From a virus, in the IMG/VR virus record IMGVR_UViG_3300032069_000007, positions 1 to 64,000 of that record: 64,000 nt of DNA; one strand, written 5' to 3'. A program made the position numbers and the translations under genes. Under the pieces are notes generated by a model. It saw nothing but the letters and a program-made list of their open reading frames with translations. It was not told the origin of the DNA and did no database searches. The stretch's first letter is position 1. Every line of letters starts with the position of its first letter. Below, piece after piece: positions 29,029 through 57,257 of this stretch.

Positions 29029-30264
29029 ATGGAAGCACAAACAACGTTCGCCGAGCGCTGGGCCGTAGCGAAGGGCATCAAGTCCGACCTTGCCGACGCG
29101 CTTGAAGATGAGGAAGAGGCCGTCGCGGATTACGACGAGCAACTCGAGGAGGCCGGCGAAGGCAAACTCAGGGAAGACCTGACGGAGATCCGCGATGACG
29201 AGAAGGACCATGCGCGGCGACTCCGGCGCCATCTCAAGCGGCACGTCGCGGGCAAGAGTTTTGCCGACCGCTGGGCCCTCGAAAAGTCCAACCCGAGCCT
29301 CATCCGCCGCACGCCAGGGCATCCTGCCCACCAGGCGTTGCTGGACGTTGGGGCGCGCTACCACGGCACGATTCGCGACCCGAGAAACGGGGCAGAGCAT
29401 CACGTTTACTCAGTGCCGCAGAAGATGAACTTCCAAGGCACGGCTATTTCGGCCAACACTGCCGCGGGGTGGCACCGCCTATCAGGGAACTGGGCACCCA
29501 TGGCTACGCCCTCCCGCCACACGCACCGCTGGTCGTCATTTGAAAACCCGGAGAGAACAGCCCGACACGTGCTCCACGGGTTCACAAACCCAGAGCATGC
29601 CGAGGCCGCACTCAAGGCGACTCATCGGTTGACGCAAAAGTGGCAGAAACCTGCGGCTCTGGGATCGCCCAAGAAGTCCTTCGCCGAGCGGTGGGAAGTG
29701 GAAAAATCCCACGTCAAAGGCCATTACCGCCAACGCGGCTCCAAGCGCTCTTGGGTCAAGCCGCACGAGCGGAAGGACACTCCGGGTGCCCCGCGGCAGG
29801 AACCAGCGGCGGGTATCCAAACCCCGTACCGCACGCGACAGGAAGTGGAGCGCGAGACGTCGGAACTCTTCCGGGATGCTGACGTGATCTCGACCTACAC
29901 CCGCAAGGACGCCCTGGCAGACGGCACGCTCGTTGACCTGACAAAGTGGGCCTCATCCGGGCCGGAAGGTATGATGGGCGGCTTCAAGGTTCCGGTCGCG
30001 GTAACGTCCGCTGTCTGGGGCGAGATCAACGACATCCCGAAGTCGAAGCAGGGAATTCAGGACGTTCGGGGTCGCGCGCACGATGTGCTCACGATGGCAG
30101 TGCTTGCGGCAAGGAGTGCGAAGCCGGGTAACAGCGAAGTCCTGTTCCGCGTCATCATGGACATCTCCGCAACCCGGGGCCGATACCAGACCTACAAGTT
30201 GAACATTGGGCCAGGGGATGTGGGCGAGCCCGTTGTGACCATTATGAGGCCCGAAGAGGACTAG
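29029..30264 (+). CDS. multidomain protein: ferritin-like helical hairpin + unknown + DUF6573-like domain
   Basis: E.EAV.DY...I.DDEKDH; YTR.DALADG.LVD...PVAVT.AVW...GPGD.GEPV.TIM.PEED; KSFAERW linkers. Confidence 0.65.
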   Translation: MEAQTTFAERWAVAKGIKSDLADALEDEEEAVADYDEQLEEAGEGKLREDLTEIRDDEKDHARRLRRHLKRHVAGKSFADRWALEKSNPSLIRRTPGHPAHQALLDVGARYHGTIRDPRNGAEHHVYSVPQKMNFQGTAISANTAAGWHRLSGNWAPMATPSRHTHRWSSFENPERTARHVLHGFTNPEHAEAALKATHRLTQKWQKPAALGSPKKSFAERWEVEKSHVKGHYRQRGSKRSWVKPHERKDTPGAPRQEPAAGIQTPYRTRQEVERETSELFRDADVISTYTRKDALADGTLVDLTKWASSGPEGMMGGFKVPVAVTSAVWGEINDIPKSKQGIQDVRGRAHDVLTMAVLAARSAKPGNSEVLFRVIMDISATRGRYQTYKLNIGPGDVGEPVVTIMRPEED

Positions 30265-30274
30265 GAGGGCCAGG

Positions 30275-30433
30275 ATGGCTGAAGCCGTTCCCGAACCCGC
30301 ATTGTGGGCAGCCAAGCCGCAGCCTGACCGCAACGTCGGCGACGGGTGGCCTGCTTGGGACATTGAGTGCGATCGCTGGCGCGACCCAGAACGACCAAGG
30401 GAGCAAAGATGGCGCCGACCGAAACCGCAGTAA
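30275..30433 (+). CDS. small hypothetical protein (52 aa, below ORF track cutoff)
   Basis: RBS ggaggg then ATG; MAEAVPEPALW...KPQ*. Confidence 0.4.
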   Translation: MAEAVPEPALWAAKPQPDRNVGDGWPAWDIECDRWRDPERPREQRWRRPKPQ

Positions 30434-33400
30434 AGCCCGTTCTGGATTTGCACGACCTCGAGAAGTCGAGGGTGAGGGCGTACACCCGGCGTGGATCGAG
30501 TGGTCAGCCAGTTCAGGTTGCCGAGTATCAGACGAAGGTCCAGAAGAGACCGCAAGCCCCCGGCGGGCCGCGTCTCACGGTCGCGCGTCAGCCAGCAACT
30601 CGCTCTGCCAGAAGCCGGTTAGCCTCTGCCTCGTCGATGCGCTTCCCATCGCGCAGAAGGTCGGCGTACAGGACGTCAGCACGCACCCAGTCCGCATCCC
30701 AGGGTGAGCGGCGCTCCACGGCATCCAAGGAGGTCTTGCCTTCGTCCTCCGACTCGACCCAGGAACGGCAGACGGTGTCGCCGTCCAAAACCCAGTATGT
30801 TAGTTCGCGGTCTGGCACTGTCCGGTCCACCCCCAAGGTCATTATACCACGAACAGCAGCGGCAACGACATCGGCGGCGCTCAGCCGCAGAATATCCAAC
30901 CTCGAGAGCACCGGCAACGGTCACGAGGTCGCAAAGTATGCGGCGGCGATCGCGGCTCACCTCAAGGACGCACCGACGCCCTTCAAGGGAACGTGGGAGG
31001 ACAAGCGACAGCCGACAGGCGACATCCCGGACCTACTGCAGCTTGCAGAGAGTGCCAAGCCGAACTTTGAAGCGAGTCTGGGGAGGATCGCTGATCGGCA
31101 CGGCGGGGCTAGTGCCTGCCGCATCAAGCAGGAACAAACGCTCAGGACGCGGATGCGCGACAAGGGCCGGCCCGCTGATACCGTGACGGACATTCTCGGC
31201 GGCCGGATCATCACCGATGACCCTGCGCACATCGCTCCCGTTCTTCGAGAGTTGCGAGAACTCTATCCCGTAGTAGAGGATGAAGATAAGTTCGCCCACC
31301 CTACGTCCTTTGGCTACTGCGCCCGGCACGTGCTGGTCAAACTGCCGAGCGGCCTTACGGCCGAAGTCCAGGTCAACCTCCGAGAATCCATCGAAATCCA
31401 GGATGTCGTCAGCCACCCGATCTACGAGGAGCTTCGCGCACCGAAGCGCAGGACCGTCGAAGAGCGCCAGGCGTTGCTCGCGAAGGTGGACGAGATACGG
31501 GGCCGGTACGCCGAGGTTCTGCGCAAGGCGACTGCGGCTCTCGGATTGGTGGTCAAGTCGCTCGTTGTTCGGTCCGTTGCGGCCTTCCAGGAGGCGAAGC
31601 ACCCGCGAGTGCCACAAGGGCAGCGGGATGCCGAGGGTCGAACCGGCGGCGAGTTCGCGCCCAACCGCACCGGCAGATATACGCGGAAGGTCGTGACGCC
31701 GCGCGGCAACGTCGTCTACGTGTACCCGAAGCGCGTGGCCCAGGCCCGGCAGTCGGCCAAGTTTCGAGGGATGCAGAAGTTGGCGGGAAAACTGCCGACA
31801 ATCCGCACTGCCCTCTCGCAGGATATCCGGCGCAGGGACCTCGAGGAGCGAAGAGTCTGCGCCGTTGCAGTCGCACTGATAGACAGCCTGCACTTCCGGG
31901 TCGGCACAGAGGGGGCCGAGACCGCCGGCGAGCCGACGTACGGCGTGACGACGCTTTTGGGTGACCACGTGCGCAACACGGACGCCAAGATCATCTTCCA
32001 GTTCCGCGGCAAGAAAGGGGTCCAATGGTCGCGGGAACTCCACAAGCCCGATGACCCGGATCTGGCGAGCGCCGTGGAGCAGATCTTGAGCGGCGTCGGA
32101 CCGGACGAGCGCGTTTTCCGCTTTCGGGGCGCGCGCGGTCTCGAGCCTCTGACCGGGTATCGTGTTGAGAAGTACCTCAAGAGGTGGAACACGACGCCGA
32201 AGGCGTTCAGGACATTGCACGGGTCATACCTGGCGCACAGTGCGCTGTCACAATTTGTCAGCCAGCACCGCGGTCAGCGGCAGTCCAGGAAGCAGGTGAA
32301 AGCAGATATTCGCGAGGTCTGTAGCTATGTTTCCGCGGAACTGGGGAACACGCCCGCGATCGCGAAGCGGAGCTACATAATGCCGGAGATCATCCGAAGC
32401 TACATTGAGTCCGAGGGCACAAGGGTCGAGCCAGACCTCAAAATGGGGAAATCATTGGACGTCTGCCAGCTCTGGATTTTGGCAAACGAGCACGGTCAGG
32501 TCCGCGGGTTCCTCCACAATGCGACGGAGCACGTCGAGCGGTTCGCGGACCAGCTCGCAAAGGCCCGAGTGGAGAAGTCCGACCAGGAGGTCGAGAAGTC
32601 ACAGTTGGGGCTGCCGTACCATCTCGAAGGCGGGGTTGGCTCGGCGCACAGGGGGGCCAAGAAGCGGCTCGGCAGGCGCGCGCTGATAGTCCGGACAGGC
32701 CGACAGCCAAAAGCGGCAGGCGATCCCGACCTGTCGCGGAAGATCAAGCGCATTGTCGGAGTCGTTGATACCCGCCAATACGAGGAGATCGGCGACACGT
32801 GGAAGCCCATCGCCGGTAGTGGGACAGTGAACCAATGTGCGCGCTGCGGGAAGGACCATGAGGTTCATGCGACGGTCGAGCTTCAGGACGGCACGCACGC
32901 CGTAGTCGGCACGAGCTGCATGAAGGCCGACAACATGGAGATGGCGCTGCGCTTCGAGAAGCTCGACCGGGCGGCCAGGCGGCTGCGGCAGCTCGAAGCC
33001 GAAAAAGCAAAGTACGATAGGGAAGTGCAGCAGTACCAGGGGGCGCTCGCGGAGGTCAGGGCGATGCCGAAGCCTCCGATCGAGGTCGTTATTGCTGAGG
33101 ACCACCCTTGGTCACGGTACGAGTACAGAATGGGCGAAGCTAGGTGCTGGGGCGAGAAGCCCGATGATCCAGAGCGGCGCATGTGCGTAACATCGAACTG
33201 GGAGACGAAAGAGCTCGTGAAGCGCGGGATCCCGCACGGGCGGCGTCCTTACCCACTCCACGAATTTGACAGGGAAATCGCCAAGGTGAAAAGGCGGATC
33301 GAGGCGGTCAAGGCAGAGTCGGAAGTCGAGAAGTCCTCTCTCTCGCGCGCGCGCAAGATAGTCACGGAGATGTACGAAAATCTTTCAAGCGATGCCACGC

Positions 33401-36400
33401 TCGAGTTCGCTCAAGACGGCGAATGGTATATCGTTCCCCGCATTGAGAAGGCCGGCGCTGCGACAGCAGAACCAAAACAGAAGGAGTGGTGGTCAGGAGC
33501 TGCGACCGGAGACGAGCGCTGGATCACCGTCCATCCGGACCCGGGCAGTCCTGAGAACTACCGCCACGTCAAGGTTCGGCTCAGGCCCTCCGGCAAGTGG
33601 CACATCATCGCCGGCGGAACCGGCCTCGAGCACGAAGAGATCGTTCCGAAGCACAAACTGACGCCGGAAGAACGGGAGCGCTACGAGGAGCGCCGGAAGA
33701 AGATGGAGGGGATCCGCAAGGAGCGCGAAAAGGGCCTTGAGCGGCTGACCGAGGTGCGGGAACAGCACACGAGCGTAAAAGCCGAGCAGATGGGGATAGC
33801 ACCCACACTGACCGAGGACACGCGGCGGGCCGTCGAGCACAGGGCAGAGACACGGGCGGAGGATGCCGGCCTGACCGGAGACGACCGGGACCGGTTTGTA
33901 GCCCGCGCTGTCCACGAAGCTGAGACGCGGCACCACGCTTACGTGCGCCGGGCTTGGGATCGCCTTTACTATCAGGCTCACAAGATCGCCCAGGCAGAGG
34001 ACCCGGAGCTCGCCGTTGGCGAAATAGCGAAACGGCACGACGAAGAGGAGGATCGGGCCGCTGATGAAGCCGCGGGCAAGGTGGAATCGAGCCTGCGAGA
34101 GATGATCGGCAAGCCGGCCTCCTCGGGTGAACCGGAGGCTGAGGAGCCGAAGGCTGAAGTTGCCATCGCCGAGACCGAAAGAGCTCAGCCGATTTACCGG
34201 CCGCCGAAGGTCAAGCCGATCTCCTCCGTGGAGCAGGCTATGAAGATCATTAGCCTGGAGAAGCAATCCCGCAAGATGATCGCAGAAGGCCGGAAGGAGC
34301 TTGCGAAGCTGCCCGAGGAGGAACTGTCCGGGACAGGAACGCTCGAGCAGTTTCAGATTACCGCAGAACTTGCGGACGAGCAGGGCGCGATGGCTGCTGC
34401 TATCCGCTCCGTCGACGATGCCAGGCGCGCCAGCCTCAACTCTACGCTGGTCCGCTTGGCCGACGAAACGTTCCGATCCGAGGAGGGAGCGTACGAGCGA
34501 TACGGCAAGAAGCGGTACGACATTGGCCGGGCACAGGTCACAGGCGCCCTGGATGCACTGACCGGGATCTCTACCCGGTTTATAGGTTCTTCTTTCATAG
34601 ACAGGCCGCTGGTGGAGGCGCTGGGAGTCGAGGCTGCGGCAATGCTCGCAACCCGCGAGATTCTGCAAAAGCGTGGGAGGCTCGACTTGGACGACGTCAT
34701 AGCCGATATGGAGAGCTACCACGCGGGCGAAGCGATGAGGATCGCGCAAGAGGCCGTAGCGCAGCACGACGAGCTCGAGGGGATGCGGAAGACGGTTGAC
34801 GAATCCTCTGCGCGCGCGCTCGTTGAGGGCGGGGAGACAGGAAGGCTTTTCTCCACTGCCCAGGCCCTCGCTTTTGACGGCGAACTGAACGTAGACGCCG
34901 TAAGACACTTGGGCACGGCGATAGGATCCTTGCATGCGTCCGCGACGGTCATGGCGATGCTCCGGGCGGCGAAGTCCGGGAAAGGCAAGCTCGACGAACT
35001 CAAAGTGAACATTACAGACGAGGGCGATGTCGCTCTCATTGACAGGATGTTGCACCTCCGCGGTCACTACAAGGTCACGCACGACCCTGAGACCGGCACC
35101 ACCTCGGTCCTGCTTAATCCAAAGTCGCTGGCCCGCTACATGAAGTTTGCAGCCAAGGAGCGCGAAGAGTCCGACTACGCGAAGGCCCTGCAGAACGGCA
35201 CAGCGAAAATTGATGTCTCGGCAGCGCCGGAGGGCTGGAAGGACCGGTACACAAGCCCCATAGACCGCCAGGAGAGAGACTTCCATTGGAAGCCGATCCA
35301 GCGGCGCGCACAGGAGTTTTTCCTCAGCCAATGCACCGGCGACGACGGCGGCGCCCTGATCGACCTGGAAGTAGGAGGCGGAAAGACGATAATGGCGCTC
35401 GGCGCGATGGGATTCCTCCGCGACCAGGGGAAAGTGCAAAAGATGCTTTACATTGCACCGCAGGAGTCCCTGGTGGGCCAGGTCCTCGGCGAGGTCGGGG
35501 GATTCACCGACTGGAAGTCGAATCAGGTGCGCGGAGGCGCAAGGGCAAGTCTTGACGACATCAGGGGGCGCTATTCCGACCCTTCGTTCGTTCAGGTGGT
35601 TTCTGCCCCTACGGTGGGCGCAGACGTCCGCCGACTGGAGCAGCTTGGGGTAAACCCATCGGACTTCTTCCGCGAGCTCGGGTACGATGGAATGGTGGCC
35701 GACGAGGCCCACAAGTTGGTGTCTGGCGTCGGGGGGGGCAAGAACGCCCGCGCGCTCAGGCGTATGCGTATGCGCTACAACCTGGCGATGACCGGCACGC
35801 TCGTGACCAACGCGATCTCTCAGCCCTTCGACCTTGTCCGGTGGGTCGCGGGAGCAAAGGTGGACAGCCGTGCGAAGATTCTGCGCAAGTATGGGGAGGT
35901 CGGGCTGGGAACCACGGCATGGCAGGACGCTGTCAACGCCGACGTCCGCCAACAGGTGGATCGGCACACATTCCACGGGGCCGGGACCATCAAAGCCAAG
36001 CTCTATCGTAACGAACTGAAGGTGGGCCTCTCGGAGACGCAGCGGCAGGACCTTGCCCAGGCGGTTAAGGCGGACAAGGTGCGCCGTGATGAGTATGCCA
36101 AGTCCAGGCCAGCCACTCCCGAAAAGGCCGAGCAGGCGCGCAGAAAACTCGACTTCGACCGCGACCGCGAGGTCTTCGAGATTCTCCACAACCGGGACTG
36201 GAAGCAGAACGACAGGTTGCGCGAGATCGCAAAGACGATCAAGCGGACGGTGGCCGACAACCCTTCACAGAAGTTCATCCTAGTGGCCGATACTGATTAT
36301 GGACTCTCTGCCATCCGGTCGGTCACGCGGATGCTGGCTGATCTGGGCTACGGCGACAGGACAGCACTTTTCGCGAGTCAGGACGCCTCCGGTCAGGCGA

Positions 36401-36711
36401 TCTCACAGAAGAAGATGATGCGCGAACAGGCCCGCTTCGCGGTCGATTCTAGCTGCCAGTTCGCGGTACTTGCCGCTCCGCAGGCGATCGGGCGCAATAT
36501 GGAGGCCGCCGGAGTCTTGGTACACGTCACGCTCCCGCCGGACGCCGGGTCGGAGAAGCAGCGGACAGGGCGCGCCTGGCGCGAGGGCCGGCAGGGAGAT
36601 GTGAACGAGACGCTTTTCTATACCGACCAACATCCGTTTGATATGAGCCGCCTGCTGCAACTGAGGCGGACCGCAGGTCCGCTCGCCGCCATATCAGGAG
36701 GCCAACCGTGA
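30409..36711 (+). CDS. giant polyvalent protein: RelA/SpoT-like nucleotidyltransferase + topoisomerase IB + SNF2-like helicase
   Basis: RIK...DILGGRI...GY.ARH...AEVQV; FRVG..YGVTT, F.GKKG, K.FRT, LGNT.AI...SYI; VGGGKT, ADEAHK, MTGT, QRTGRAWREG. Confidence 0.88.
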   Translation: MAPTETAVKPVLDLHDLEKSRVRAYTRRGSSGQPVQVAEYQTKVQKRPQAPGGPRLTVARQPATRSARSRLASASSMRFPSRRRSAYRTSARTQSASQGERRSTASKEVLPSSSDSTQERQTVSPSKTQYVSSRSGTVRSTPKVIIPRTAAATTSAALSRRISNLESTGNGHEVAKYAAAIAAHLKDAPTPFKGTWEDKRQPTGDIPDLLQLAESAKPNFEASLGRIADRHGGASACRIKQEQTLRTRMRDKGRPADTVTDILGGRIITDDPAHIAPVLRELRELYPVVEDEDKFAHPTSFGYCARHVLVKLPSGLTAEVQVNLRESIEIQDVVSHPIYEELRAPKRRTVEERQALLAKVDEIRGRYAEVLRKATAALGLVVKSLVVRSVAAFQEAKHPRVPQGQRDAEGRTGGEFAPNRTGRYTRKVVTPRGNVVYVYPKRVAQARQSAKFRGMQKLAGKLPTIRTALSQDIRRRDLEERRVCAVAVALIDSLHFRVGTEGAETAGEPTYGVTTLLGDHVRNTDAKIIFQFRGKKGVQWSRELHKPDDPDLASAVEQILSGVGPDERVFRFRGARGLEPLTGYRVEKYLKRWNTTPKAFRTLHGSYLAHSALSQFVSQHRGQRQSRKQVKADIREVCSYVSAELGNTPAIAKRSYIMPEIIRSYIESEGTRVEPDLKMGKSLDVCQLWILANEHGQVRGFLHNATEHVERFADQLAKARVEKSDQEVEKSQLGLPYHLEGGVGSAHRGAKKRLGRRALIVRTGRQPKAAGDPDLSRKIKRIVGVVDTRQYEEIGDTWKPIAGSGTVNQCARCGKDHEVHATVELQDGTHAVVGTSCMKADNMEMALRFEKLDRAARRLRQLEAEKAKYDREVQQYQGALAEVRAMPKPPIEVVIAEDHPWSRYEYRMGEARCWGEKPDDPERRMCVTSNWETKELVKRGIPHGRRPYPLHEFDREIAKVKRRIEAVKAESEVEKSSLSRARKIVTEMYENLSSDATLEFAQDGEWYIVPRIEKAGAATAEPKQKEWWSGAATGDERWITVHPDPGSPENYRHVKVRLRPSGKWHIIAGGTGLEHEEIVPKHKLTPEERERYEERRKKMEGIRKEREKGLERLTEVREQHTSVKAEQMGIAPTLTEDTRRAVEHRAETRAEDAGLTGDDRDRFVARAVHEAETRHHAYVRRAWDRLYYQAHKIAQAEDPELAVGEIAKRHDEEEDRAADEAAGKVESSLREMIGKPASSGEPEAEEPKAEVAIAETERAQPIYRPPKVKPISSVEQAMKIISLEKQSRKMIAEGRKELAKLPEEELSGTGTLEQFQITAELADEQGAMAAAIRSVDDARRASLNSTLVRLADETFRSEEGAYERYGKKRYDIGRAQVTGALDALTGISTRFIGSSFIDRPLVEALGVEAAAMLATREILQKRGRLDLDDVIADMESYHAGEAMRIAQEAVAQHDELEGMRKTVDESSARALVEGGETGRLFSTAQALAFDGELNVDAVRHLGTAIGSLHASATVMAMLRAAKSGKGKLDELKVNITDEGDVALIDRMLHLRGHYKVTHDPETGTTSVLLNPKSLARYMKFAAKEREESDYAKALQNGTAKIDVSAAPEGWKDRYTSPIDRQERDFHWKPIQRRAQEFFLSQCTGDDGGALIDLEVGGGKTIMALGAMGFLRDQGKVQKMLYIAPQESLVGQVLGEVGGFTDWKSNQVRGGARASLDDIRGRYSDPSFVQVVSAPTVGADVRRLEQLGVNPSDFFRELGYDGMVADEAHKLVSGVGGGKNARALRRMRMRYNLAMTGTLVTNAISQPFDLVRWVAGAKVDSRAKILRKYGEVGLGTTAWQDAVNADVRQQVDRHTFHGAGTIKAKLYRNELKVGLSETQRQDLAQAVKADKVRRDEYAKSRPATPEKAEQARRKLDFDRDREVFEILHNRDWKQNDRLREIAKTIKRTVADNPSQKFILVADTDYGLSAIRSVTRMLADLGYGDRTALFASQDASGQAISQKKMMREQARFAVDSSCQFAVLAAPQAIGRNMEAAGVLVHVTLPPDAGSEKQRTGRAWREGRQGDVNETLFYTDQHPFDMSRLLQLRRTAGPLAAISGGQP
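30588..30818 (-). CDS. nested antisense small protein, candidate antitoxin/immunity for the RelA/SpoT domain
   Basis: MPDRELTYWVLDG...W...G.RIDEAEANRLLA; own TGgTATAAT (30849-30841) and SD GGGGGTG; host frame is Ser/Arg/Thr filler over the same span. Confidence 0.62.
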   Translation of the reverse strand: MPDRELTYWVLDGDTVCRSWVESEDEGKTSLDAVERRSPWDADWVRADVLYADLLRDGKRIDEAEANRLLAERVAG

Positions 36712-37077: not shown

Positions 37078-37416
37078 ATGTTGATGCTTATGCTAAGCAA
37101 GGAAGAGCGGTCTGCCCTGATGCGGCAAGTAACCGAGCGGATGCGGACCGTCGTCAAGGACTATCGCCGGACGCACAACATCACTCAAGCTCGACTTGCA
37201 CGCCAACTTGATTGTGGGAGTCCCGCCGTGATTGGCAACTACGAGAACGGCAAAACTATTCCCCATTTCTTCACGCTGACCCAACTGTTTCTGGTGTGCG
37301 TACAGAATGCCCCGGAAGATGTCCTCGACATGATGAGGCGTCTGGGTTTGCCGGTCGACGAGGCCCTAGTAGAGATCCGATCGGGAAGGGGGGTCCCCGA
37401 ATGCCAGCGTGGTTGA
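37078..37416 (+). CDS. XRE-family HTH regulator
   Basis: ITQARLARQL.C....IGNYENGKTIP. Confidence 0.8.
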   Translation: MLMLMLSKEERSALMRQVTERMRTVVKDYRRTHNITQARLARQLDCGSPAVIGNYENGKTIPHFFTLTQLFLVCVQNAPEDVLDMMRRLGLPVDEALVEIRSGRGVPECQRG

Positions 37417-40352: not shown

Positions 40353-40550
40353 ATGCCAATGCCGAGCCGACACGTTTGCGCCGGATGCCGTCATCTTCGC
40401 GAGTGGCCCCGTTGCGCGGCTTTTCCAGGGGGCATACCGCAGGAGATACAGCGGCAGGAACACTTTCACATCGCGCCCTATCCGGGCGATCGAGGAATAC
40501 ACTTTGAGCGGAACAAAGAGATCAGGCATGAGAACCGAAGAGCTGCGTAA
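40353..40550 (+). CDS. small Cys/His protein (C..C.H...C.AFP.GIP family)
   Basis: CAGCRH...CAAFPGGIPQEI....H..PYPGDRGIHF. Confidence 0.7.
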   Translation: MPMPSRHVCAGCRHLREWPRCAAFPGGIPQEIQRQEHFHIAPYPGDRGIHFERNKEIRHENRRAA

Positions 40551-43828: not shown

Positions 43829-46800
43829 GGTCTTAGGCAGGCAGGGCAACCGGCTCAACATCGCGCGCCGGGAGTGCTCCTGCGAGGTCAAGTTGCCGTT
43901 TGGCCTGCGCTTCACCGACGGCGGCAAGATGCACCGGGTCCACGTCTGCCCGCAGTGCGAGCGCCTCCACGGGTACGAGGACATCCGTAAGGGAACCCTG
44001 CTGCGCAGTCAAGTCGTCTTCGCCCCCGGGTTGCCGCTCTTATCGAAGGCACTCGAGCTCAAGGCCGGCCAGCGCTGGGTAACGCTGCATCCGGATGCCG
44101 AGAACCCAGAAAACTACGTCCACGTCCTGATCCAAGAGCACCCCGATGGCACAGCAAGCGTCATTCGGGGAGCTGAGGGCAAGCTCAACTACCTGCGGCT
44201 GACAAAACTCAAATCGCCGGAGGACTGGCAGGAATCCGGAAAGCGCCTTGCCGAGGAGCGCGAGAGGCGGCGGAAAGAGCGTGAGGCCGCGATGACCGAA
44301 GAGGAGCGCCAGACCACGCACGACGTAGAAGCTGGCATACTGGCCCGCAAGGAGCTGGAGGACGCCAAGTACGTATCGCAGGTGATGGAGGCGCACGGGA
44401 TAGGCGAGTCCGACTGGAAGCTCGAAGAAAAGACCTTGGTAGCCCTGCCGGGGAAGTCACGCGAGATGGCCGAGAAGCAGCACCTCCGCAAGATGGTCAC
44501 GGTGGCGAACAAGCTCGTGGACCGCACGCGCAAGGATCTGCTGGACGCTCACGACCGATTGGCCGAAGCCGAGCTCGGCGATATGCCGCTCGGGGACGTA
44601 GGTATCGAGCGGCCACTCGAGGGCAAAGGAAGCGGGTATATCGCCGCAGTCGAGAACGCGGCAGAGGCGGCTGGTCTAAGCGTCAGGCAGAAGATCGCGG
44701 AGAAGGAGGACATAAGCTGGAGAGGGTTCCTTGACCGAAGCGACGGCGATCCTCTCAAGGCTGCCGAGAAGCTCGCAGCGGTCCAGCGCCTGCACGCAGC
44801 GCTCCGCGAGGTTCGTGAACCGATCAAGGAGCTCAGAACCGCCGGCCTATTGGATAGGCCGCTGAAACCGGAACTTCCGCCAACCGAGAAGATCGCTGAC
44901 ATCCTCGTGGCGCAGAAGCAGCACACCGACTACGAGCGGCAGTACCGACAGGTGAAGGGTGAGATAGAGGAACACGGGGTTCCCAAGGCCGCTCTTGAGG
45001 TCGTGACGGAACTCAGGCCGGAGGAGGTCGAGGAGATCATCAGGGCCGCTGCCGCAAAGCCCTTAGACGAGGAAGCCGCCAAGGACAAGGTCGCCGAGGA
45101 ACTGGCCGAGGATGCGATGCAGCGTGCGGCCGAGAGGCTGCTTGCGACCGCCGACAAGGAGGAGGCCCTTCAGCCACTCCGCAAATACGTGACGATGGGG
45201 CATTACGACAGTTTGAACCGCTCCTGCCTCGCGGCAACGCGCACCCCCCTGCCCCTCGGCCGTCTTCAGGCCGACATCCTGGGACCAGAGGCCAGTGCCC
45301 AGGTGCTCGCCGCCCATCTCAGAGAAACGCTCTCGGACACGGATTACAGGGCAGCACTCCACGGCGTTGCCAACTACCATCGCAACTATCAGCGGCAGGC
45401 AAGCGAACAGGCCCTCCAGTCGTACGCGTCGACAAAGCAGCAGGCCGACGAACTCTCCGAGCGCCCGATATCCGACATCGGGTCTCTTGTTGAGGCACAG
45501 GTTGCGAATGCCGACCGGATTGACCTCGTTGACGAGGCGCGGGAGACTCTCGGCGTGGCGCTCGGACGGCTGGAAGCTACGGCTGCGCTTGTCCAAGCGC
45601 TTGAGCTTCAACACGCACGCAAGGGAGTGCCGGAAGAGCTGCGGGTTCCGCTCGGTGCTATCTCAAATCAGCAGGCCATTGCGCAAGCGCGCGTGCTGGG
45701 ACTCAGCCACCCTGTCATGGAGGAGATGGAGCCGGGGGTGGAACCCGATTACCGAATCGACTCCGACGGCGTCAACAAGTTCCTGACTATCTTGCCGAAC
45801 GGGGCAGCCAAGCTCGTGACGAAGCCCGATCGGGAGCTCGCAGAGAAGCACGCACTCGCAACCGAGATCAAATCAGGTAGGCGGGATCAGAGGCACTGGC
45901 TCCCCGCAGGAATTGTCTCGAGGCCGCAGAGCACATTCGAGGATCCCGAGAAGCGCGCGGTGCAGTTCTCGGAACCGCTCGAACTCAGGCCCAAAATGCG
46001 GTATGCGGAGGTCAACCGCGGACTCAAGCACTATATCGCGCGGCGTCTAGCGGACGGCCAGGACCCTGAGAGCCTGCGTTCCGACCTGCTTTCGGCAGAG
46101 TTCACCGCGGACCTGCCGGACGATCTTCTGGGAGACGGCGGCGGATCCTACTACAAGGCCCTAAGCGACCTCGGCTGGTTCACCTACAACCAGGTAGAAA
46201 ACAAGTCCCCGGAGGGGCTGGAGGCCATAGCCGAACACGCAGTTGAGGAGTACGAACGCGAACACGGGGCGTCTGAGGAGGTCGCCGCCCTCAACTCGCA
46301 GTCCATCCCACTGAAAGACAGCCCGGTGTGCTACGAGGCTCTCTACAGGGCCGTTGCGGCTCACCCCGAAGCCAGGGTAGCGTTCAAGGCTCTCTCCGAG
46401 CTGACGCCGGAGGAGCGCGGGCTGATCCAGCGCTTCTTCTACCGGGTCATGACCGAGGAGAAGTCGCCCCAGGAAGAGGCTGAGGAGAAGAGGCTTACCG
46501 CAAGACCGACCCAGGCCCCGGCTAGGCAGGAGGCGCTGTGGGCCGAGCAAGAGGTGCCCGCAGAGACGACGGAGGCCCGGAAACCCGCCAAGCCAGGACG
46601 CGAGACCCCGTGGACCCGCTACGTCAAGGCGCAGGGATCTGTCCAACATGCCTATGAGAGTGTCCAGGACGTCATGAGAGGCGCCGTCTCGGCGCAGTTC
46701 GCCAAGCACATGGGAGGCATACTTGGCCGCGAGCTGAAGACCGGCAACAAGCGCATCGCAAACTGGGATGACCACCTTCTCGGGCTCGTTTCTCCAGAAC

Positions 46801-52793: not shown

Positions 52794-54974
52794 ATGGCAC
52801 AAGAAAGCTTCAACATCCCACTTGAGATCGTCAAGGCCGAGCGGACCTCAGACGGCCAGATGCGCATTCACGGCATCGCGAGCGACGAGAGCCTCGACCT
52901 GCAGAACGAGGTCGTCAAGGCAAGCGGCCTGGCCGAGTCCCTCGAATACCTCAAGACCTGGGGCAAGTTCAACGACGACCATAAGCGGATTTTTCTCGGC
53001 GATATAGATCAAGCTGAGATTACGACACGCGGGGCGCTTGCGGCAAAAGGCCTGCCCTGCAGGCCGGACCAGGTTAGCACGCCGTGTGTCTACGTTGCTG
53101 GCTATCTCTTCCCCAAGGTCGCCAGGGCGAGACACTATTGGGACGTAATCCAGTCCGGTGGCCGGGTCGGGATGTCGGTACAGGGAAGACCGCTTGCTGC
53201 GCCGATAACCGTCAAGAGCGGGGACGGCCAAAGCGAGCACCGCATGTGGACTAAACTCTTCGCCAACCAGGTTGCACTGACTGTCCAGCCCATCAATACC
53301 TCCACATGGGTCGGAATACAGAAGAGTTTTGAAAGGAAGTTTGGTGTCAAGATACCGAGGCGCCTGCGTTGCATATCCCGCAAGGTAGTGCCGGGTCGAA
53401 AACAGCGACTGTACGAGTTCGCCTCTTCGACTCCCGGGATTCACGCGGGGCAACTCGCCGATGGACTGCGCCGAAAAGGCCATGTGGTAAGCGTCCATCC
53501 CGCGCCTGTGAACCTGGGCATGCCGCACGTGATAACGACCCGCACCAACCGGGGCACTGAATATCGATTCCATATCTACCAGCGCTTCGGGAGGTCGCTC
53601 GGCACCGGCAGCGCCATAGTGGGCCCGGGCACGCCTGAGCCTGCAGGCGCTGCCCTTCGGACTCAGAGCCTAGAAGGGGCGGTTAAACGACTGACACCGA
53701 GGCTGACCATCAAGAAGAAGAGGAAAAAGAAAATGCAGAAATCCATTGAAAGGCGCGAGGACGTGTCCGCGGCCGAGAAGAAGCGCGCCGCCGGCGAATA
53801 TGGCGACGTGACCTACGCCGATCCGGTCAACAAGAAGTACCCACTGGACGCCGAGCACATCCACGCAGCGATAGCCTACTTTTCCAAGCCTAAGAACCAG
53901 GCGAAGTACTCGCCGGAGGAGCGGAAGCTCATGTGGGGGCGCATCAGGCGGGCGGCGAAGAAGCACGGCGTCGAGATGGCGAGCAAGAGTTTCGGCGAGC
54001 GATGGGGCATTGTCAAGGGACTAATAGACGACGAGCGATATGGATCGCACGTTGCGGCCGAGGCAGGAGTGAAGCACATCGGCACGCGGCACGACCCTGG
54101 CGAGACTGCGGATAACCCCAATGTTCATCATACCTATCGCTCGAAGAACCCCAAGTCTGGTGCTGAAGCCATTCAGTATCACCTCAACCGATACGCGAAT
54201 AGACGCGATGCTCTGCGGGTTGAGCATGACCCGAACGGCCAGTGGTCGAAAATCGTGCATACCAGGCCCGGACTCCCGACCCACACGCACCTCGTTACAA
54301 GAGGTAGGCACGTTCAGAAATCACAGGGCTACGACGGGCAGTACGACCTCACGCAATGCGTTTCCGAGGAGGAGGCAAAGAGTCAAGTGCCAACTTTAGA
54401 TTTTCAGTCCATCGGGACGATGACGCCGGGCGAGATCGTGAAGGCGTGGCGGTCGGTTACACAGCCGAAAGAGGCAGTCCTGCACCCGCCCGAAGAGCTC
54501 AGGGCCTACAAGGTGGCCTTGGGAGCGGCCGCCCGCGAGCACAGTCCCGCCTGGGCTGCGGGAATCGCGAAATCCCAGGGCTGGTCGCCAGCGGCCGATA
54601 TGACGGAACTTGACATCGGCGTCTGGATGGCACTCGCCGAGATGTCAGAAGACGATGTCGCCAAGGCCATTTCCAGGGGCGAGGCAGAGGTCTGCAAGTC
54701 GCTTTCGGCAGGCTACGGCCTGGACCAAGCCACAGTCCATGACGGTTGGCAGGACCTGCTCAAGAAAGCGGTCGCCGGAAACCAGTCGGGGTGTGACCTC
54801 GAGGCACCGGAGAAGCCGCTTGACGACAGCCGATCTCAAGGCGAACTGCCGGATGAGAAGAAGCGCAAAAAGAAAAAGCCGACCGAACCGGGCGACAACG
54901 ATCTGGAAGGCGTGCCCGATCCGCCGGAGAAGCCACTCGACGATAGCCGCTCGCAGGGGAAGTTTCCGAGTTAG
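52794..54974 (+). CDS. prohead protease with long multidomain C-terminal extension (includes DUF6582-like domain)
   Basis: GIASDESLDLQNE, GKFNDDH, GMSVQG, VALT..P.N; YADP..KKYPLD..H..AA..YF. Confidence 0.82.
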   Translation: MAQESFNIPLEIVKAERTSDGQMRIHGIASDESLDLQNEVVKASGLAESLEYLKTWGKFNDDHKRIFLGDIDQAEITTRGALAAKGLPCRPDQVSTPCVYVAGYLFPKVARARHYWDVIQSGGRVGMSVQGRPLAAPITVKSGDGQSEHRMWTKLFANQVALTVQPINTSTWVGIQKSFERKFGVKIPRRLRCISRKVVPGRKQRLYEFASSTPGIHAGQLADGLRRKGHVVSVHPAPVNLGMPHVITTRTNRGTEYRFHIYQRFGRSLGTGSAIVGPGTPEPAGAALRTQSLEGAVKRLTPRLTIKKKRKKKMQKSIERREDVSAAEKKRAAGEYGDVTYADPVNKKYPLDAEHIHAAIAYFSKPKNQAKYSPEERKLMWGRIRRAAKKHGVEMASKSFGERWGIVKGLIDDERYGSHVAAEAGVKHIGTRHDPGETADNPNVHHTYRSKNPKSGAEAIQYHLNRYANRRDALRVEHDPNGQWSKIVHTRPGLPTHTHLVTRGRHVQKSQGYDGQYDLTQCVSEEEAKSQVPTLDFQSIGTMTPGEIVKAWRSVTQPKEAVLHPPEELRAYKVALGAAAREHSPAWAAGIAKSQGWSPAADMTELDIGVWMALAEMSEDDVAKAISRGEAEVCKSLSAGYGLDQATVHDGWQDLLKKAVAGNQSGCDLEAPEKPLDDSRSQGELPDEKKRKKKKPTEPGDNDLEGVPDPPEKPLDDSRSQGKFPS

Positions 54975-55003: not shown

Positions 55004-55044
55004 AGATAGCCGTGGCGTGCCTGTGATGCAGGAGGTACGCAGTT

Positions 55045-55683
55045 ATGGGAAAGCGTAAGGACGAAGACGTCGACGACATCCTCGATCGCCAAGCTGAGGA
55101 CGAGGACGAGGAAGAGTTGGAAGGCGAAGGCGACGAGGAGGAAGAGGGCGACGAGGAGGAAGAGGGCAACGAGGAAGAGACCGAGGAGGAAAAGAGGCGT
55201 TCGGCCAAGCGCAAGTCCCTCACAGATATTCTGAGGGAGGACGAGCAGTCGGCTGAGGCGCTCGACGTTGCACCGTTCCTCACGGAACTGTCCCAGGCCA
55301 TCGGCAAGTCGCTTGAGACGATGGAGGGCCAGATCGTCAAGAAGCTCACCAAGCACATCGATTCCCGGCTCGCCGAGATCGGAGACGCGGTGCTTGACCA
55401 GGGCGCGACCGTCAAGGAACAGGCCGAACTCATGAAGAGCTTTGGGGAGGCCATTGAGCAGATCGGGAAGGAGCCGCAGGCGCGAAAGAGCAAGCCCTAC
55501 GGCGTCAACACACCTCTGATCGAGAAGTCGGACGGTGGCCGCTCGCGCGAGGAGATGCAGAAGCTCATCATGAAGGCGTGCCAGGATAGGAAGCTGGAGG
55601 CCGACTGGGTCACCAGGGCAGAGGACCCCGCGTACCCGGACGACCTTCTTGCCAAGGCACTGGCCAGCATCGCCGTCGAGTAA
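55045..55683 (+). CDS. putative capsid scaffolding protein
   Basis: Acidic, coiled-coil, many KS sites, P..RKS motif; between protease and capsid genes. Confidence 0.7.
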   Translation: MGKRKDEDVDDILDRQAEDEDEEELEGEGDEEEEGDEEEEGNEEETEEEKRRSAKRKSLTDILREDEQSAEALDVAPFLTELSQAIGKSLETMEGQIVKKLTKHIDSRLAEIGDAVLDQGATVKEQAELMKSFGEAIEQIGKEPQARKSKPYGVNTPLIEKSDGGRSREEMQKLIMKACQDRKLEADWVTRAEDPAYPDDLLAKALASIAVE

Positions 55684-55772
55684 CCGCAGTGTGACAACCG
55701 AGCAGCCCCACGTTACCAGAGCAGCCGTAGTTTGACGTTGCCCACGAATACTACGCAAAGGAGGAAGCGTCA

Positions 55773-57257
55773 ATGATTGGCGTTTCAGACCAGTTCGTGG
55801 GTCTTGCGAACTACACGGACCTGATGGGGGGCTTCGGAATCTCCAGCGCCTTCGAGGTGCAGGAGCTCCAGAAGGCCCTGACAACCGGGCAGGATATCGT
55901 CGCGGCCGGCCCACAGGGCGGCCAGGCGCTTCGAGTACAAAGCCTGGAAAATACGCTTAAACTTCTCACGTACAGGGCTTCAGATTTGGCCCTGTGGCAG
56001 AGGATGGCGAAGAAGACGGCGTTCTCGACTGTCGAGGAGTACAGCCGATTGGACAAGCTGGCGATTGAGATGCCGGCGTTCGTCGGTGAGAACCCGGACC
56101 AGAACGTAGCCGCCGAGCGGTGGGTCGAACAGGACCAGAGCTATAGCCGACAGGTCGCAACCGTGCGGTTCATGGCCATCAAGAAGGCCGTGACCCTCGC
56201 CGCGACGTTCGTGCGGAACATCGTCCAGGACATCGAGGCGCACCAGACCCAGATAGGAACTCTGGAGCTCCTGGGGCGCGTCGAGGCTGGGATGTTTTAC
56301 TCCGACAACCGGGTGAACCTGTTGGCCTGGGACGGCTACCCGGCGTTGATGCAGAAGTTCACGGGCGTCGTGCCGTACACCGGCACCTACAACAGCGTGG
56401 CGTACACCACTGCCGCGTGGCCGAGCGGTGACTTCAAGGACATCATCGTCGACTGCGAGGGCAACCCGCTCTCGGAGGAGTATCTGGAACTCGGGCAGCA
56501 GATCACGAGAACCCACTACGGAAAGCTCGACGTGCTCTTCATGAGTCCGAGGGCGAAGTCCGATCTCTACAAGCAGCTCTATCCTGCTCAGCGGATAATG
56601 ATGCCGCCCACTCCGGATGGCCGCGTTGGGATCAACTTCAGCTTCTACATGGGTTCCAACGGAGAGTCGGAGCTCCTTTCCGACGTGTTCATTGGACTCC
56701 GAAGGCCGAAGGCTGTTGCGGATAGCGGCGCTCCGACCGCGCCCCAGAACGGCACCAACATCACGATTGCAGCGGCCTCGTCCGCCACATCGAAGCTGGA
56801 GACCGACACCTACTACTACTATCTCTCGAGCGTCGACGGACAAGGCCGGGAGTCAGTCACGACGTCGAAGAACCAGGCGGCGACAGTCGGCCAGAAGATA
56901 ACCCTGACCGTCAAGACGGCGTCCTGGCAGACAGGCGCGGTTCAGTGCCGGGTCTACAGGAACAAGGGCACTGACGATATCACGAAGGCATCGCTGATCG
57001 TGACGCTGCCGAAGCCTGACAGCGGCGACATCGCCTACGTGGACGAGAACCAGTCGAGGGAGAACTGCTCAATTGCGATGGGGTTCACCTGGGACGCCGA
57101 TCAGGTGGTTGCGTTCAAGCAACTCGCACCGCTGATGAAGCTCCCCTTGGCCATCGTCAGCACGGCCAAGCCCTTCTTGATCCTACTGTACGGCACTCCG
57201 GTGCTGTACGCTCCGAGCAAGTGCATCCTCTATTCCAACGTAGGGATGCTGACGTAG
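55773..57257 (+). CDS. major capsid protein (SPO1/Twort-like)
   Basis: LQKALTTG, GGQALRVQSLE..LK.LT, STVEEY, inserted Ig-like domain, LAPLMKLPLA, LLYG.P. Confidence 0.9.
   Translation: MIGVSDQFVGLANYTDLMGGFGISSAFEVQELQKALTTGQDIVAAGPQGGQALRVQSLENTLKLLTYRASDLALWQRMAKKTAFSTVEEYSRLDKLAIEMPAFVGENPDQNVAAERWVEQDQSYSRQVATVRFMAIKKAVTLAATFVRNIVQDIEAHQTQIGTLELLGRVEAGMFYSDNRVNLLAWDGYPALMQKFTGVVPYTGTYNSVAYTTAAWPSGDFKDIIVDCEGNPLSEEYLELGQQITRTHYGKLDVLFMSPRAKSDLYKQLYPAQRIMMPPTPDGRVGINFSFYMGSNGESELLSDVFIGLRRPKAVADSGAPTAPQNGTNITIAAASSATSKLETDTYYYYLSSVDGQGRESVTTSKNQAATVGQKITLTVKTASWQTGAVQCRVYRNKGTDDITKASLIVTLPKPDSGDIAYVDENQSRENCSIAMGFTWDADQVVAFKQLAPLMKLPLAIVSTAKPFLILLYGTPVLYAPSKCILYSNVGMLT

Follow-up and report, generated by a model that had tools for sequence, protein, structure and literature searches.

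Multi-enzyme giants encoded in head gene clusters have been described as the polyvalent proteins of phages and conjugative elements by Iyer, Burroughs, Anand, de Souza and Aravind in 2017 (PMC5512222), who predicted their packaging and delivery with the DNA and also proposed that peptidases release their domains. That release was credited to embedded zincin metallopeptidases or to a C-terminally fused assemblin-like peptidase, and no junction motif was described. In phiKZ and SPN3US, one short motif serves the prohead proteases gp175/gp245 on many internal and ejection proteins (PMC10052503, PMC5694885); all identified cleavages in SPN3US yield N-terminal propeptides, the motif ends in Glu, and it is not described as splitting several enzymes of one chain. 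The T4 proteins IPI-III and Alt, which enter the prohead, are trimmed in it and are later injected, bear short N-terminal peptides that end in a prohead-protease site; gp21, of another protease family, cuts after Glu (L/I-x-E↓, the arrow marking the bond) and removes one peptide per single-domain protein. HK97 gp4, an S78 protease, cuts gp5 at K103↓S104, and capsid proteins of the SPO1/Twort type are trimmed at a comparable bond (phi812 K24↓S25, SPO1 K↓A). To our knowledge, the substrates in HK97/SPO1/Twort-type phages are only structural, namely the capsid protein, the scaffold or delta domain and the protease itself. Retroviral Gag-Pol and picornavirus polyproteins are likewise single chains cut in the particle by a virion protease, with short spacers between units, but they share no homology with the proteins considered here and belong to the structural or replicative core rather than to the accessory cargo of a DNA phage.

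The window analyzed here is a stretch of 64 kb out of the 80,287-base record of an uncultured virus with a genome of ~80-88 kb. The capsid protein encoded in its head module is of the SPO1/Twort type, the prohead protease belongs to S78 (HK97-type), and five giant genes sit between the portal and protease genes. As part of our best overall explanation, held with moderate confidence, we read these as head-cargo polyvalent proteins. They share with the described ones the hallmark domains InPase (PF18823), RelA/SpoT and SNF2, with LPD1 and ART-PolyVal in relatives; unlike in that account, the protease has a separate S78 gene and its own site signal at the module joints. Unlike in T4, the putative cut follows Lys, and a single chain has sites, frequently paired, between its modules as well. 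No published description of cargo joints punctuated by K-S/A/G was found in the literature.

The lysine motif on the protease, scaffold and capsid proteins

In the S78 protease clade, hydrophobic-x-K↓S/A/G is a hallmark motif: 150 representatives of the protease family contain 1230 copies against 322 expected, with z above 3 in 110 of them. Unbiased enrichment around all lysines gave I/L at P3, S/A at P1' and L/W/F at P2'. The features of the three head proteins, with residues of the protease protein numbered within ORF 52794, are as follows.

52794..52835, + strand: N-terminal 14-aa peptide ending in EIVK57↓A, aligned with the SPO1-like ADILK14↓S
52836..53324, + strand: predicted S78-type prohead serine protease domain with catalytic His106 and Ser171, ending in GIQK220↓SF (PHROG 1028, BLASTP, model)
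53595..53678, + strand: segment like the N-arm of the mature capsid protein (SLGTG...LRTQSLEG vs ALTTG...LRVQSLEN; direct reading)
53742..53987, + strand: DUF6582 module between MQK359↓S and ASK441↓S (Pfam envelope 357-440)
53988..54017, + strand: spacer SFGERWGIVK between K441↓S and K451↓G, the fourth F-x-E-R-W copy
54018..54320, + strand: variable cassette with K↓S at all edges (alignment A1)
55045..55683, + strand: scaffold protein with six loose-motif sites, K88, K131, K148, K161, K177 and K204 (PHROG 15087)
55773..55874, + strand: 34-aa N-terminal propeptide of the major capsid protein, ending in ELQK34↓A (11 bits)

The first-pass annotation had named the product of ORF 52794 as the prohead protease, and alignment and structure prediction support an S78/assemblin-type protease domain in it. 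The Pfam S78 profile gave no direct match to the window protein; the domain matched an S78-positive SPO1-like protease by BLASTP (E 9e-8), and the two align end to end with both flanking K↓S/A sites at equal positions. All 24 family members compared share the catalytic His and Ser as well as the terminal Lys, and at least 90% of them also have K57. The model (pLDDT 89.9), in which the N-terminal peptide is disordered, has herpesvirus assemblins and T4 gp21 as best folds, with weak fold E-values (2e-3 at best). Counting the window protein and its close homologues, which make up four of them, 24 proteins of the set have the capsid-N-arm-like segment, and it recurs in an SPO1-like phage. DUF6582 has K↓S/A at both edges in P0005 as well, and the variable cassette is swapped for unrelated sequence in relatives that are 73-86% identical; both protease cassettes are K↓S-bounded in 4/4 relatives.

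The scaffold holds six loose-motif sites against 1.2 expected, three of which score 8 bits or more, and an SPO1-like scaffold contains 11 (12 K↓S dipeptides) within 251 aa. The capsid K34↓A35 (LQK34↓ALTTG) aligns with SPO1 LNK↓ALEAGH and phi812 VVK24↓S25, and its K↓A is conserved in five related phages (L007, L009, L010, L012, L013). The premise that such capsid proteins lose a propeptide at a Lys-Ser site, treated as established in the annotation, holds as far as PDB chains show, because the deposited mature phi812 chain starts at S25: chain 9row (439 aa) lacks exactly 24 residues of the full-length 5lii chain (463 aa) and is otherwise equal to it.

Sites at the joints of the giant proteins

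A scoring matrix was built from 121 members of the protease family outside the window and applied with a cut-off of 8 bits or more. The head core (portal, protease, scaffold and capsid protein) contained 12 sites against 1.2 expected (z 9.8), the five giant proteins 9 against 3.7 (z 2.9; 2/300 shuffles reach 9), and the other 21 window proteins 2 against 3.5, that is, no excess. The enrichment anticipated earlier is thus strong in the head core and only about twofold in the cargo, so that the evidence for the cargo lies in site position; the raw loose-motif count shows no excess in the 982-aa and 1978-aa proteins (z below 1). Pairs of sites flanking a short hydrophobic peptide number 6 in the giant proteins against 1.5 expected (2/500 shuffles), 4 against 0.44 in the head core and 0 against 0.83 elsewhere. 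A motif site falls within the first 45 residues of 7 head-cluster proteins and of 1 other, the N-termini of the others being approximate.

Every site example listed in the annotation was found in its place in a + strand ORF, and its claim of five punctuated polyproteins stood for three: ORFs 29029, 30367 (first ~1030 aa) and 37212 show true punctuation, as does the protease protein, and ORFs 40504 and 43800 have one N-terminal site each. Residues are numbered from the GTG at 30367 in the 2100-aa protein (ORF 30367-36711) and from 37212 for the sites and spacers of the 982-aa protein P0011 (ORF 37212-40349).

29029..30264, + strand: putative 411-aa cargo protein of three modules (aa 16-76, 87-216 and 227-411)
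29029..29073, + strand: N-terminal 15-aa peptide ending in AVAK15↓G, the first F-A-E-R-W decapeptide copy
29257..29286, + strand: spacer SFADRWALEK between K76↓S and K86↓S
29677..29706, + strand: spacer SFAERWEVEK between K216↓S and K226↓S, then a basic hairpin head HVKGHYR...
30409..36711, + strand: putative 2100-aa polyvalent protein with RelA/SpoT-like, topoisomerase IB, Zn-ribbon/coiled-coil and SNF2-type helicase modules (Pfam)
30409..30465, + strand: N-terminal 19-aa peptide ending in DLEK33↓S (8 bits), then a basic hairpin head
31528..31557, + strand: spacer ATAALGLVVK between K387↓A and K397↓S (VVK397↓SLVV, 10 bits)
32449..32451, + strand: K695 of MGK↓SL, ~1 residue past the profile-corrected topoisomerase IB end
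32560..32598, + strand: cluster of LAK732↓A, VEK737↓S and VEK744↓S (VEK737↓SDQEVEK744↓S) immediately ahead of an LPYHLEGG module head
33310..33333, + strand: AVK982↓A and VEK989↓S past the coiled-coil module
33448..33450, + strand: K1028 of RIEK↓A, ahead of the RWITVHP head of the SNF2 helicase module
37401..40349, + strand: putative 982-aa polyvalent protein (Pfam, AlphaFold2 model)
37569..37613, + strand: spacer SLAAPTMVVAVGGYDPLFK between KK119↓SL and LFK134↓S, in the low-pLDDT segment 45-72 of the model
38379..38399, + strand: spacer SLRLVLK between SK389↓S and K396↓G, ~10 aa ahead of the first histidine phosphatase strand
39069..39137, + strand: spacer SVCG...PRLVLK between KK619↓S and K642↓G, 5 aa ahead of the InPase domain
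39549..39551, + strand: K780 of KMIK↓SLP (10 bits), 6 aa past the InPase domain
40062..40100, + strand: spacer ALDNPIPVVLVEK between GK950↓AL and LVEK963↓S
40528..40551, + strand: N-terminal 8-aa peptide of the 922-aa protein (ORF 40504), ending in ELRK16↓S, then a basic hairpin head
44046..44048, + strand: K83 of LLSK↓ALE (9 bits), between an N-terminal Zn ribbon and an RWVTLHP head (ORF 43800)

In the 411-aa protein, aa 16-76 are weakly ferritin/EncFtn-like (Rubrerythrin/EncFtn-like matches at E 8e-4 to 2e-3), and aa 227-411 comprise the basic hairpin and DUF6573 (Pfam 279-411). The composite of SFAERWEVEK and hairpin head recurs in L013 and P0062. Between the decapeptide copies, synonymous positions vary and Ser is written with codons of both families, which indicates that the peptide, not the DNA, is conserved. 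In the 2100-aa protein, the spacer ATAALGLVVK has the RelA/SpoT module on one side and an HPR...GGEF head with topoisomerase IB on the other; L008 has MGK↓SF at the equivalent place after topoisomerase IB, and K↓S/A precedes LPYHLEGG heads three times in P0012. Its alignment with P0023 stops at AVK982↓A/VEK989↓S, and paired or single K↓A sites precede the RWITVHP head also in L007, L009, L010 and L013. ORF 40504 has its one convincing site at the N-terminus. ORF 43800 was rejected as a polyprotein: it encodes a single SNF2 helicase, to which the RWVTLHP head belongs, split by two inteins, and K83 is conserved in L004, with paired sites analogous to it in L007 and L009.

The 982-aa protein runs from an N-terminal helical module through a HARP-like small domain, histidine phosphatase and InPase to two C-terminal modules. 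A confident model domain begins 2 aa past K134, and homology with P0012 breaks at KK↓SL; the spacer SVCG...PRLVLK is conserved in P0012 along with the InPase module, homology with P0012 stops at K780, and P0013 has K↓A at the same InPase edge. Each of the model's sites K71, K333, K556, K579 and K717 falls in a low-pLDDT linker at a distance of 2-14 residues from a confident domain, although the alignment was shallow (12 rows) and low pLDDT may partly reflect lack of data rather than disorder.

The expectation that sites fall at domain boundaries was borne out. Cargo sites lie outside Pfam domains, in low-confidence linkers and within 15 residues of predicted domain edges, and motif lysines are rarer within recognised domains (3/41 vs 88/361 other lysines; Fisher p 0.01). 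Five Pfam domains found in the protease ORF and the punctuated proteins (RelA/SpoT, topoisomerase IB, histidine phosphatase, InPase and DUF6582) have strict-motif sites on both sides and none within. Counted against cleavage are single motif sites within DUF6573 (K338), the protease domain (K85) and intein 1 (K1217), as well as YTK↓G at K692 in InPase, a looser match. The same goes for the first site of most pairs, where P3 is not hydrophobic (GKK↓S, PSK↓S, ASK↓S), and for the sites of type LVLK↓G, which score under 8 bits.

Cargo and protease sites match every mosaic breakpoint seen among relatives, including 3/3 homology breakpoints between P0011 and P0012 at K↓S, a coincidence that breakpoints at conserved linkers could produce with no cleavage at all. 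In related IMG/VR loci (GC 39-70%), a giant SNF2/TopoIB/LPD1/ART-PolyVal protein lies immediately upstream of the protease, and the same N-terminal peptides and paired spacers precede the same module heads; nine giant ORFs of these loci sum to 36 sites against 18.6 expected, and their tail-side ORFs, in a rough tally, to roughly 6 against 6. In P0062, the same spacers join the protease to ferritin-like and basic-hairpin modules in one fusion protein. P0018 and P0019 fuse InPase to portal-type domains, as likewise found by Iyer et al. (PMC5512222).

Proposed processing in the head and competing readings

The reading we favor, and consider reasonably probable, is that the S78 protease cuts the cargo polyproteins in the head and that the freed modules enter the cell with the DNA. 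Late in infection, the giant proteins would be co-assembled into the procapsid with the scaffold and the protease protein, whose serine protease (His106/Ser171) would be activated inside. Its recognition site would be a short stretch in extended form, with Lys at P1 preceded by a hydrophobic P3 and followed by Ser/Ala/Gly at P1' and frequently Leu/Phe at P2'; the enzyme would release itself at K57↓A and K220↓S, fragment the scaffold and strip 34 residues off the capsid protein. The cargo would be cut at the same signal within flexible joints, with paired sites leading to excision of a 7-25-residue hydrophobic spacer, and the freed modules (RelA/SpoT-like enzyme, topoisomerase IB, histidine phosphatase, InPase, DUF6573, DUF6582 and SNF2 helicases) would be kept in the head and then pass into the cell along with the DNA. 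The linkers may in addition have a targeting role, as first suggested, by analogy with the T4 capsid-targeting sequences.

The K-S-bounded hydrophobic peptides might instead be uncut module adaptors, either strands or helices docking on scaffold, capsid interior or DNA, or recombination junctions, with their likeness to protease sites reflecting groove binding without hydrolysis or coincidence. We regard this as unlikely, though worth weighing: the spacers coincide with mosaic breakpoints, the first site of most pairs fits the matrix poorly, the fourfold use of one decapeptide (F-A/G-E/D-R-W) suggests a binding element over a bare cut site, and the N4 virion RNA polymerase is packaged without processing (Iyer 2017). 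However, the same P3/P1/P1'/P2' preferences mark the capsid propeptide and fill scaffolds, known targets of degradation by such prohead proteases, and adaptors hardly explain N-terminal peptides of 8-19 residues that end in the motif. Since the spacer DNA is not conserved, homologous recombination at repeats is also unlikely.

Cutting of the joints by another protease, such as a putative zincin-like domain in the 922-aa protein (suggested by HEMTH, an HExxH motif at 42097-42111) or a host enzyme, possibly after injection, appears improbable. Embedded metallopeptidases are the usual processing device according to Iyer et al. (PMC5512222), but no Pfam metallopeptidase matched at E 0.01 or below, the motif is common to the capsid, scaffold and protease proteins and typifies the S78 clade rather than zincin neighbours, and the related loci retain the site grammar beside an S78 gene.

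Still less probable, in our judgement, is that the cargo is cut and packaged mainly to fill the head or form an assembly core in an oversized capsid, with enzyme domains active before packaging or never and no injected effectors. A genome of ~80-88 kb is small for a capsid of the SPO1/Twort type, whose T=16 heads (a figure from those phages, not from this head) hold 130-150-kb genomes, and phiKZ-like phages build an inner body from cleaved proteins. The SPN3US paper (PMC10052503) reports only a large internal head protein mass. Conflict effectors would nevertheless be in keeping with the fast cassette turnover and with the intact Pfam matches of the catalytic domains (topoisomerase IB, InPase, histidine phosphatase, RelA/SpoT). 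Chance or reading bias, a hydrophobic residue followed by K-S/A/G being a short and common pattern in Lys-rich proteins whose raw count in two giants is at expectation, is already disfavoured by the independent-matrix scan, the paired-site test, the depletion within domains, the agreement with breakpoints and model linkers and the recurrence in unrelated loci, and is the least plausible reading.

The earlier interpretation is thus partly supported, with cleavage, packaging and injection of the cargo being what we infer from the observed sites. Since the cargo joints carry the same Lys-Ser/Ala/Gly signal as the capsid, scaffold and protease proteins, the enzymes of the giant proteins are, judged from their sequences, probably packed into the head and separated from one another by cleavage inside it.

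Gene order and the large head-cluster proteins

Every gene of the window is encoded on the + strand, with a GC content of ~60%. The window covers bases 1-64,000 of its parent IMG/VR viral record, which has 80,287 bases and a completeness estimate of 93%. Five large genes, whose products we refer to as the cargo proteins, are found between the portal gene and the genes for the protease, scaffold and capsid proteins.

Genes discussed in the text (position, strand, product)
16713, + strand: large terminase
23526, + strand: portal
29029, + strand: 411-aa cargo protein; Pfam DUF6573
30367/30409, + strand: 2100-aa cargo protein; Pfam RelA_SpoT, topoisomerase IB (Topoisom_I) and SNF2/ResIII helicase in one chain
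37212/37401, + strand: 982-aa cargo protein; Pfam His_Phos_1 (histidine phosphatase) and InPase PF18823, E 7e-41
40504/40528, + strand: 922-aa cargo protein; GHKL ATPase, weak Pfam match
43800, + strand: 2523-aa cargo protein; Pfam SNF2 helicase, split by two inteins
52078-52707, + strand: sigma-70-like factor (regions 2 and 4), after the cargo genes and before the gene for the protease
52665, likely start 52794, + strand: protease protein
55045, + strand: scaffold
55773, + strand: major capsid protein

The capsid protein belongs to the SPO1/Twort type, with an E value of 4e-43 to SPO1 Gp6.1 (PDB 9vel). Its identity to Herelleviridae capsid proteins is about 28-30%, and with a genome of ~80-88 kb, 60% GC and no close cultured relative, the phage most likely represents a separate lineage that has its head module in common with the Herelleviridae rather than a member of that taxon. 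In known phages, SPO1/Twort-type capsid proteins form T=16 heads for 130-150-kb genomes, and here a protein of this type is paired with a genome of only about 80-88 kb; a head of unchanged size would leave a large spare volume for protein cargo. The sigma-70-like gene keeps its position in L004 and L005, two partial related contigs from one metagenome scan. The two inteins of the 2523-aa protein (47298-48581 and 48861-50237, residues 1167-1594 and 1688-2146) are missing from the helicase of the same contigs, with exact junctions.

The large proteins conform to the "polyvalent proteins" described by Iyer et al. 2017 (PMC5512222). By Pfam, the 2100-aa and 982-aa proteins each combine at least two unrelated enzyme domains in one chain; the hallmark domains InPase PF18823, in the window, and LPD1 and ART-PolyVal, in syntenic proteins of the related loci L008 and L013, are present; and the genes are located in the head morphogenesis cluster, with synteny retained in the related loci L007-L013. 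Polyvalent proteins were predicted to be packaged into the head, and their processing was ascribed to embedded metallopeptidases or a C-terminal assemblin-like peptidase; a junction motif is not among the features described (PMC5512222). In the 922-aa protein, a HEMTH (HExxH) motif at 42097-42111 could mark a zincin-like metallopeptidase of the type common in polyvalent proteins, and no metallopeptidase profile match was found for this protein in Pfam.

Several further modules were noted in the cargo proteins. The first module of the 411-aa protein (29074-29256) has weak Rubrerythrin and EncFtn-like half-ferritin matches (E 8e-4 to 2e-3), and the ferritin-like segment is clearer in P0062, a related protein in which it is fused to the protease; this module may serve as an iron-binding cargo, in the manner of encapsulin ferritins. 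Immediately following K134|S (the bar denotes a proposed cut after Lys) lies a small domain (37614-37793) that was modelled with pLDDT up to 91 though its alignment was without homologues, and that has a weak match to HARP (annealing-helicase), E 0.025. In the 2100-aa protein, the N-terminal hairpin is followed by a Ser/Arg-rich stretch (30367-30780) so unusual that an alternative gene call, P0022, begins at residue 137; conservation of the N-terminal peptide and of the hairpin favours the longer form. A homologue search with the first 1020 residues returned only the protein itself and two distant partial matches.

The head protease and its probable lysine signal

Residues 44-220 of the ORF at 52665 match PHROG 1028, head maturation protease, at E 1.9e-10. 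This segment gave no match to Pfam PF04586 (Peptidase_S78) even at E 1, and a PDB sequence search did not recognise the protease domain directly. PF04586 is present in the precomputed annotation of P0009, a distant relative, and BLASTP aligned the whole domain end to end (E 9e-8) with a 202-aa SPO1-like phage protease that itself matches PF04586; annotated Herelleviridae prohead proteases were matched by tblastn. Searching the full database with the domain yielded 199 relatives. Alignment of 24 members showed no variation at the catalytic His106 and Ser171 (H63 and S128 in domain numbering) or at the terminal Lys, and at least 90% of them retain the domain's N-terminal Lys. For the AlphaFold2 model of the domain (pLDDT 89.9, pTM 0.83), the best Foldseek rows were herpesvirus proteases (assemblins; probability 0.98-0.99, with a weak E of 2e-3) and T4 gp21 (5jbl).

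Both edges of the domain carry lysine sites, at the same positions in the window and in the SPO1-like phage (EIVK|A versus DILK|S, and GIQK|SF versus AVVK|SF). Among 150 listed family representatives we counted 1230 occurrences of [LIVMFW]-x-K-[SAG], where shuffles predict 322, and when all lysines were considered without preselection, enrichment was observed for I/L at P3, S/A at P1' and L/W/F at P2'. The SPO1-like scaffold contains 11 motif sites and 12 K|S dipeptides in 251 residues, a density expected for a protein that the protease must destroy. In the capsid protein, ELQK34|A of the window aligns with ALNK|A of SPO1 and VVK24|S25 of phi812, scores 11 bits with an independent matrix, and is retained as a K|A site by the capsid protein at five related loci. 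The phi812 chain in 9row (439 residues) equals that in 5lii (463 residues) minus the first 24, so that the mature protein begins directly after K24; we used this PDB chain offset, as no open paper was found that states a measured N-terminus of the SPO1, A511 or phi812 capsid protein. Together, the motif statistics and the phi812 offset lead us to infer that the S78 protease probably cleaves the capsid protein, the scaffold and itself after Lys.

One segment of the protease protein (53595-53678, SLGTG...LRTQSLEG) resembles the mature start of the capsid protein (55875-55952, ALTTG...LRVQSLEN). The set contains 24 proteins with this mimic of the capsid N-arm, including the window protein and close homologues of it (four in all), and the mimic recurs in an SPO1-like phage; it may be a means of building the protease into the procapsid.

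Lysine sites in the cargo proteins and their relatives

The first-pass annotation had listed examples of the loose motif, hydrophobic-x-K|S/A/G, each of which is present in the window, and had placed such sites repeatedly at domain boundaries of five large proteins, the protease and the scaffold. By loose count the motif was enriched in the protease protein and the scaffold and not in two cargo proteins, in which the raw count was at the expectation level. The loose count was therefore dropped as a test, and a ten-position matrix from other genomes was used instead, built on the C-terminal extensions of 121 family members with the window sequences excluded and applied at a threshold of 8 bits or more.

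Sites of at least 8 bits in the window (observed, expected, z)
Portal, 241-aa protein, protease protein, scaffold and capsid protein: 12 sites, 1.2 expected, z 9.8
Five cargo proteins: 9 sites, 3.7 expected, z 2.9 (2/300 shuffles)
21 other proteins: 2 sites, 3.5 expected, no z

High-scoring sites also occur in the portal, at VVK|ALR (23709-23726) and LLK|SVQ (24819-24836), and in the 241-aa Cys-rich head protein, at LAK38|ALG (26461-26478); the SPO1-like portal has a 9-residue N-terminal peptide ending in SLSK|A.

Recognised domains are poor in motif lysines, holding 3 of 41 compared with 88 of 361 other lysines (p 0.01). Five Pfam domains of the proteins punctuated by such sites, RelA/SpoT, topoisomerase IB, histidine phosphatase, InPase and DUF6582, all have strict-motif sites on either side and none inside. 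DUF6582 of the protease protein (envelope 357-440) lies between K359|S and K441|S, InPase is flanked by K642|G and K780|S (counted from 37212), and, with the unmatched end of the profile taken into account, K695|S falls about one residue beyond topoisomerase IB. In the 982-aa protein, an AlphaFold2 model, which is supporting evidence only since its alignment has just 12 rows, shows three confident domains (73-132, about 341-542 and 584-711, counted from 37401), and K71, K333, K556, K579 and K717 are all in linkers of low confidence, at a distance of 2-14 residues from the edge of a domain.

Comparison with relatives placed homology breakpoints at the same kind of site. P0012, a related protein, matches the 982-aa protein in two modules only, the N-terminal one of 52 residues and that of InPase (89% identical), and all three breakpoints between the two proteins are at K|S. 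Four protease proteins, 73-100% identical, have exchanged a 34-residue Cys-rich insert and a cassette of ~100 residues, each edge of which is K|S in all four sequences. The cassette (54018-54320; columns ~490-710 of A1, the alignment of protease-protein relatives) is unrelated in sequence in relatives whose flanks are 73-100% identical, and the insert, which follows the protease domain, is present in relatives and missing in the window phage. Breakpoints at conserved linkers are by themselves no proof of cleavage.

Many of the sites are paired around a short hydrophobic peptide, or spacer, with 6 pairs against 1.5 expected in the cargo proteins, 4 against 0.44 in the head core, and 0 elsewhere. 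A decapeptide, S/T-F-A/G-E/D-R-W-x-h-x-K, occurs in three copies in the 411-aa protein and one in the protease protein. Synonymous positions and the serine codon family vary from copy to copy, which points to selection on the peptide; DNA-level repeats were rejected on this ground as the origin of the spacers. N-terminal peptides of 8-19 residues ending in h-x-K|S/A/G were found in the protease protein and in all but one of the five giant proteins, and the same type is present in loci L008 and L013 and in the related proteins P0007, P0008 and P0013.

For the locus scan we used nine closer protease sequences, as the 24-sequence alignment was too diverse, and obtained 19 IMG/VR loci that encode a related protease; when the capsid protein or the closest relative, P0002, served as query, IMG/VR scans returned short fragments only. 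The nearer loci (GC 39-70%) have a giant SNF2, topoisomerase IB, LPD1 or ART-PolyVal protein directly upstream of the protease and capsid genes. Their proteins follow the same grammar, in which K|S closes hydrophobic peptides at the N-terminus and paired spacers immediately precede recurring module heads, namely a basic hairpin (HVKGHYR...), HPR...GGQF, RW(I/V)T(V/L)HP and LPYHLEGG. In L008 paired sites lie exactly between LPD1 and topoisomerase IB, and in P0062 the same spacers link the protease to the ferritin-like and basic-hairpin modules. Nine giant proteins of these loci have 36 sites in sum, against 18.6 expected; the protease and scaffold ORFs reach z 4-17, with eight of nine above 7, and no site excess was found in tail-side ORFs.

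Predicted processing of the cargo and its meaning

The most economical explanation of these sequence patterns, and one that we consider rather probable, is that the S78 protease would cut the cargo proteins at their marked joints inside the procapsid. Against cargo cleavage stand the count excess in these proteins, which is modest, and the poor match of the first site in most pairs. Such processing would resemble the trimming of internal proteins by T4 gp21 and of ejection proteins by SPN3US gp245, both prohead proteases; unlike in those systems, the proposed cuts would also separate several enzymes of one chain. The N-terminal peptides recall the cargo of the T4 capsid-targeting sequence, a peptide of ~10 residues ending in a prohead protease site. 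The T4 gp21-type protease cuts after Glu and the window motif ends in Lys; the system would work like the T4 capsid-targeting system without being a member of it.

A broader reading, which we regard as unlikely, is that the junctions form a portable cargo grammar of HK97-fold heads. Each K|S-bounded hydrophobic spacer would then be a putative loading tag and excision site at once, so that a cassette for any enzyme, once inserted between a pair of spacers, would be taken into the head, released by cleavage and injected. Loading of the protease protein would go through its mimic of the capsid N-arm, and a match between junction code and protease specificity would hold generally from one phage lineage to the next. 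The 52-residue module conserved at the N-terminus of the 982-aa protein is no weaker a candidate for a loading tag than the putative spacer tags. No published description of junction codes in phage cargo polyproteins was found in the literature searched.

For polyvalent proteins, which are widespread, an embedded metallopeptidase has been proposed in the literature as the means by which one chain gives rise to many enzymes that act on their own. Joints that carry the site signal of the head protease itself provide precise predictions of the cut bonds and of the mature virion products. If correct, cleavage of the cargo by the S78 protease would account for the free swapping of cassettes between relatives and for these genes staying beside the protease gene, and would give laboratory strains a simple rule by which foreign proteins could be loaded into phage heads. 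It would further explain how roughly 15-20 ready-made enzymes, among them helicases, phosphatases, a topoisomerase and one resembling an alarmone synthetase, might be delivered by a phage of 80 kb.
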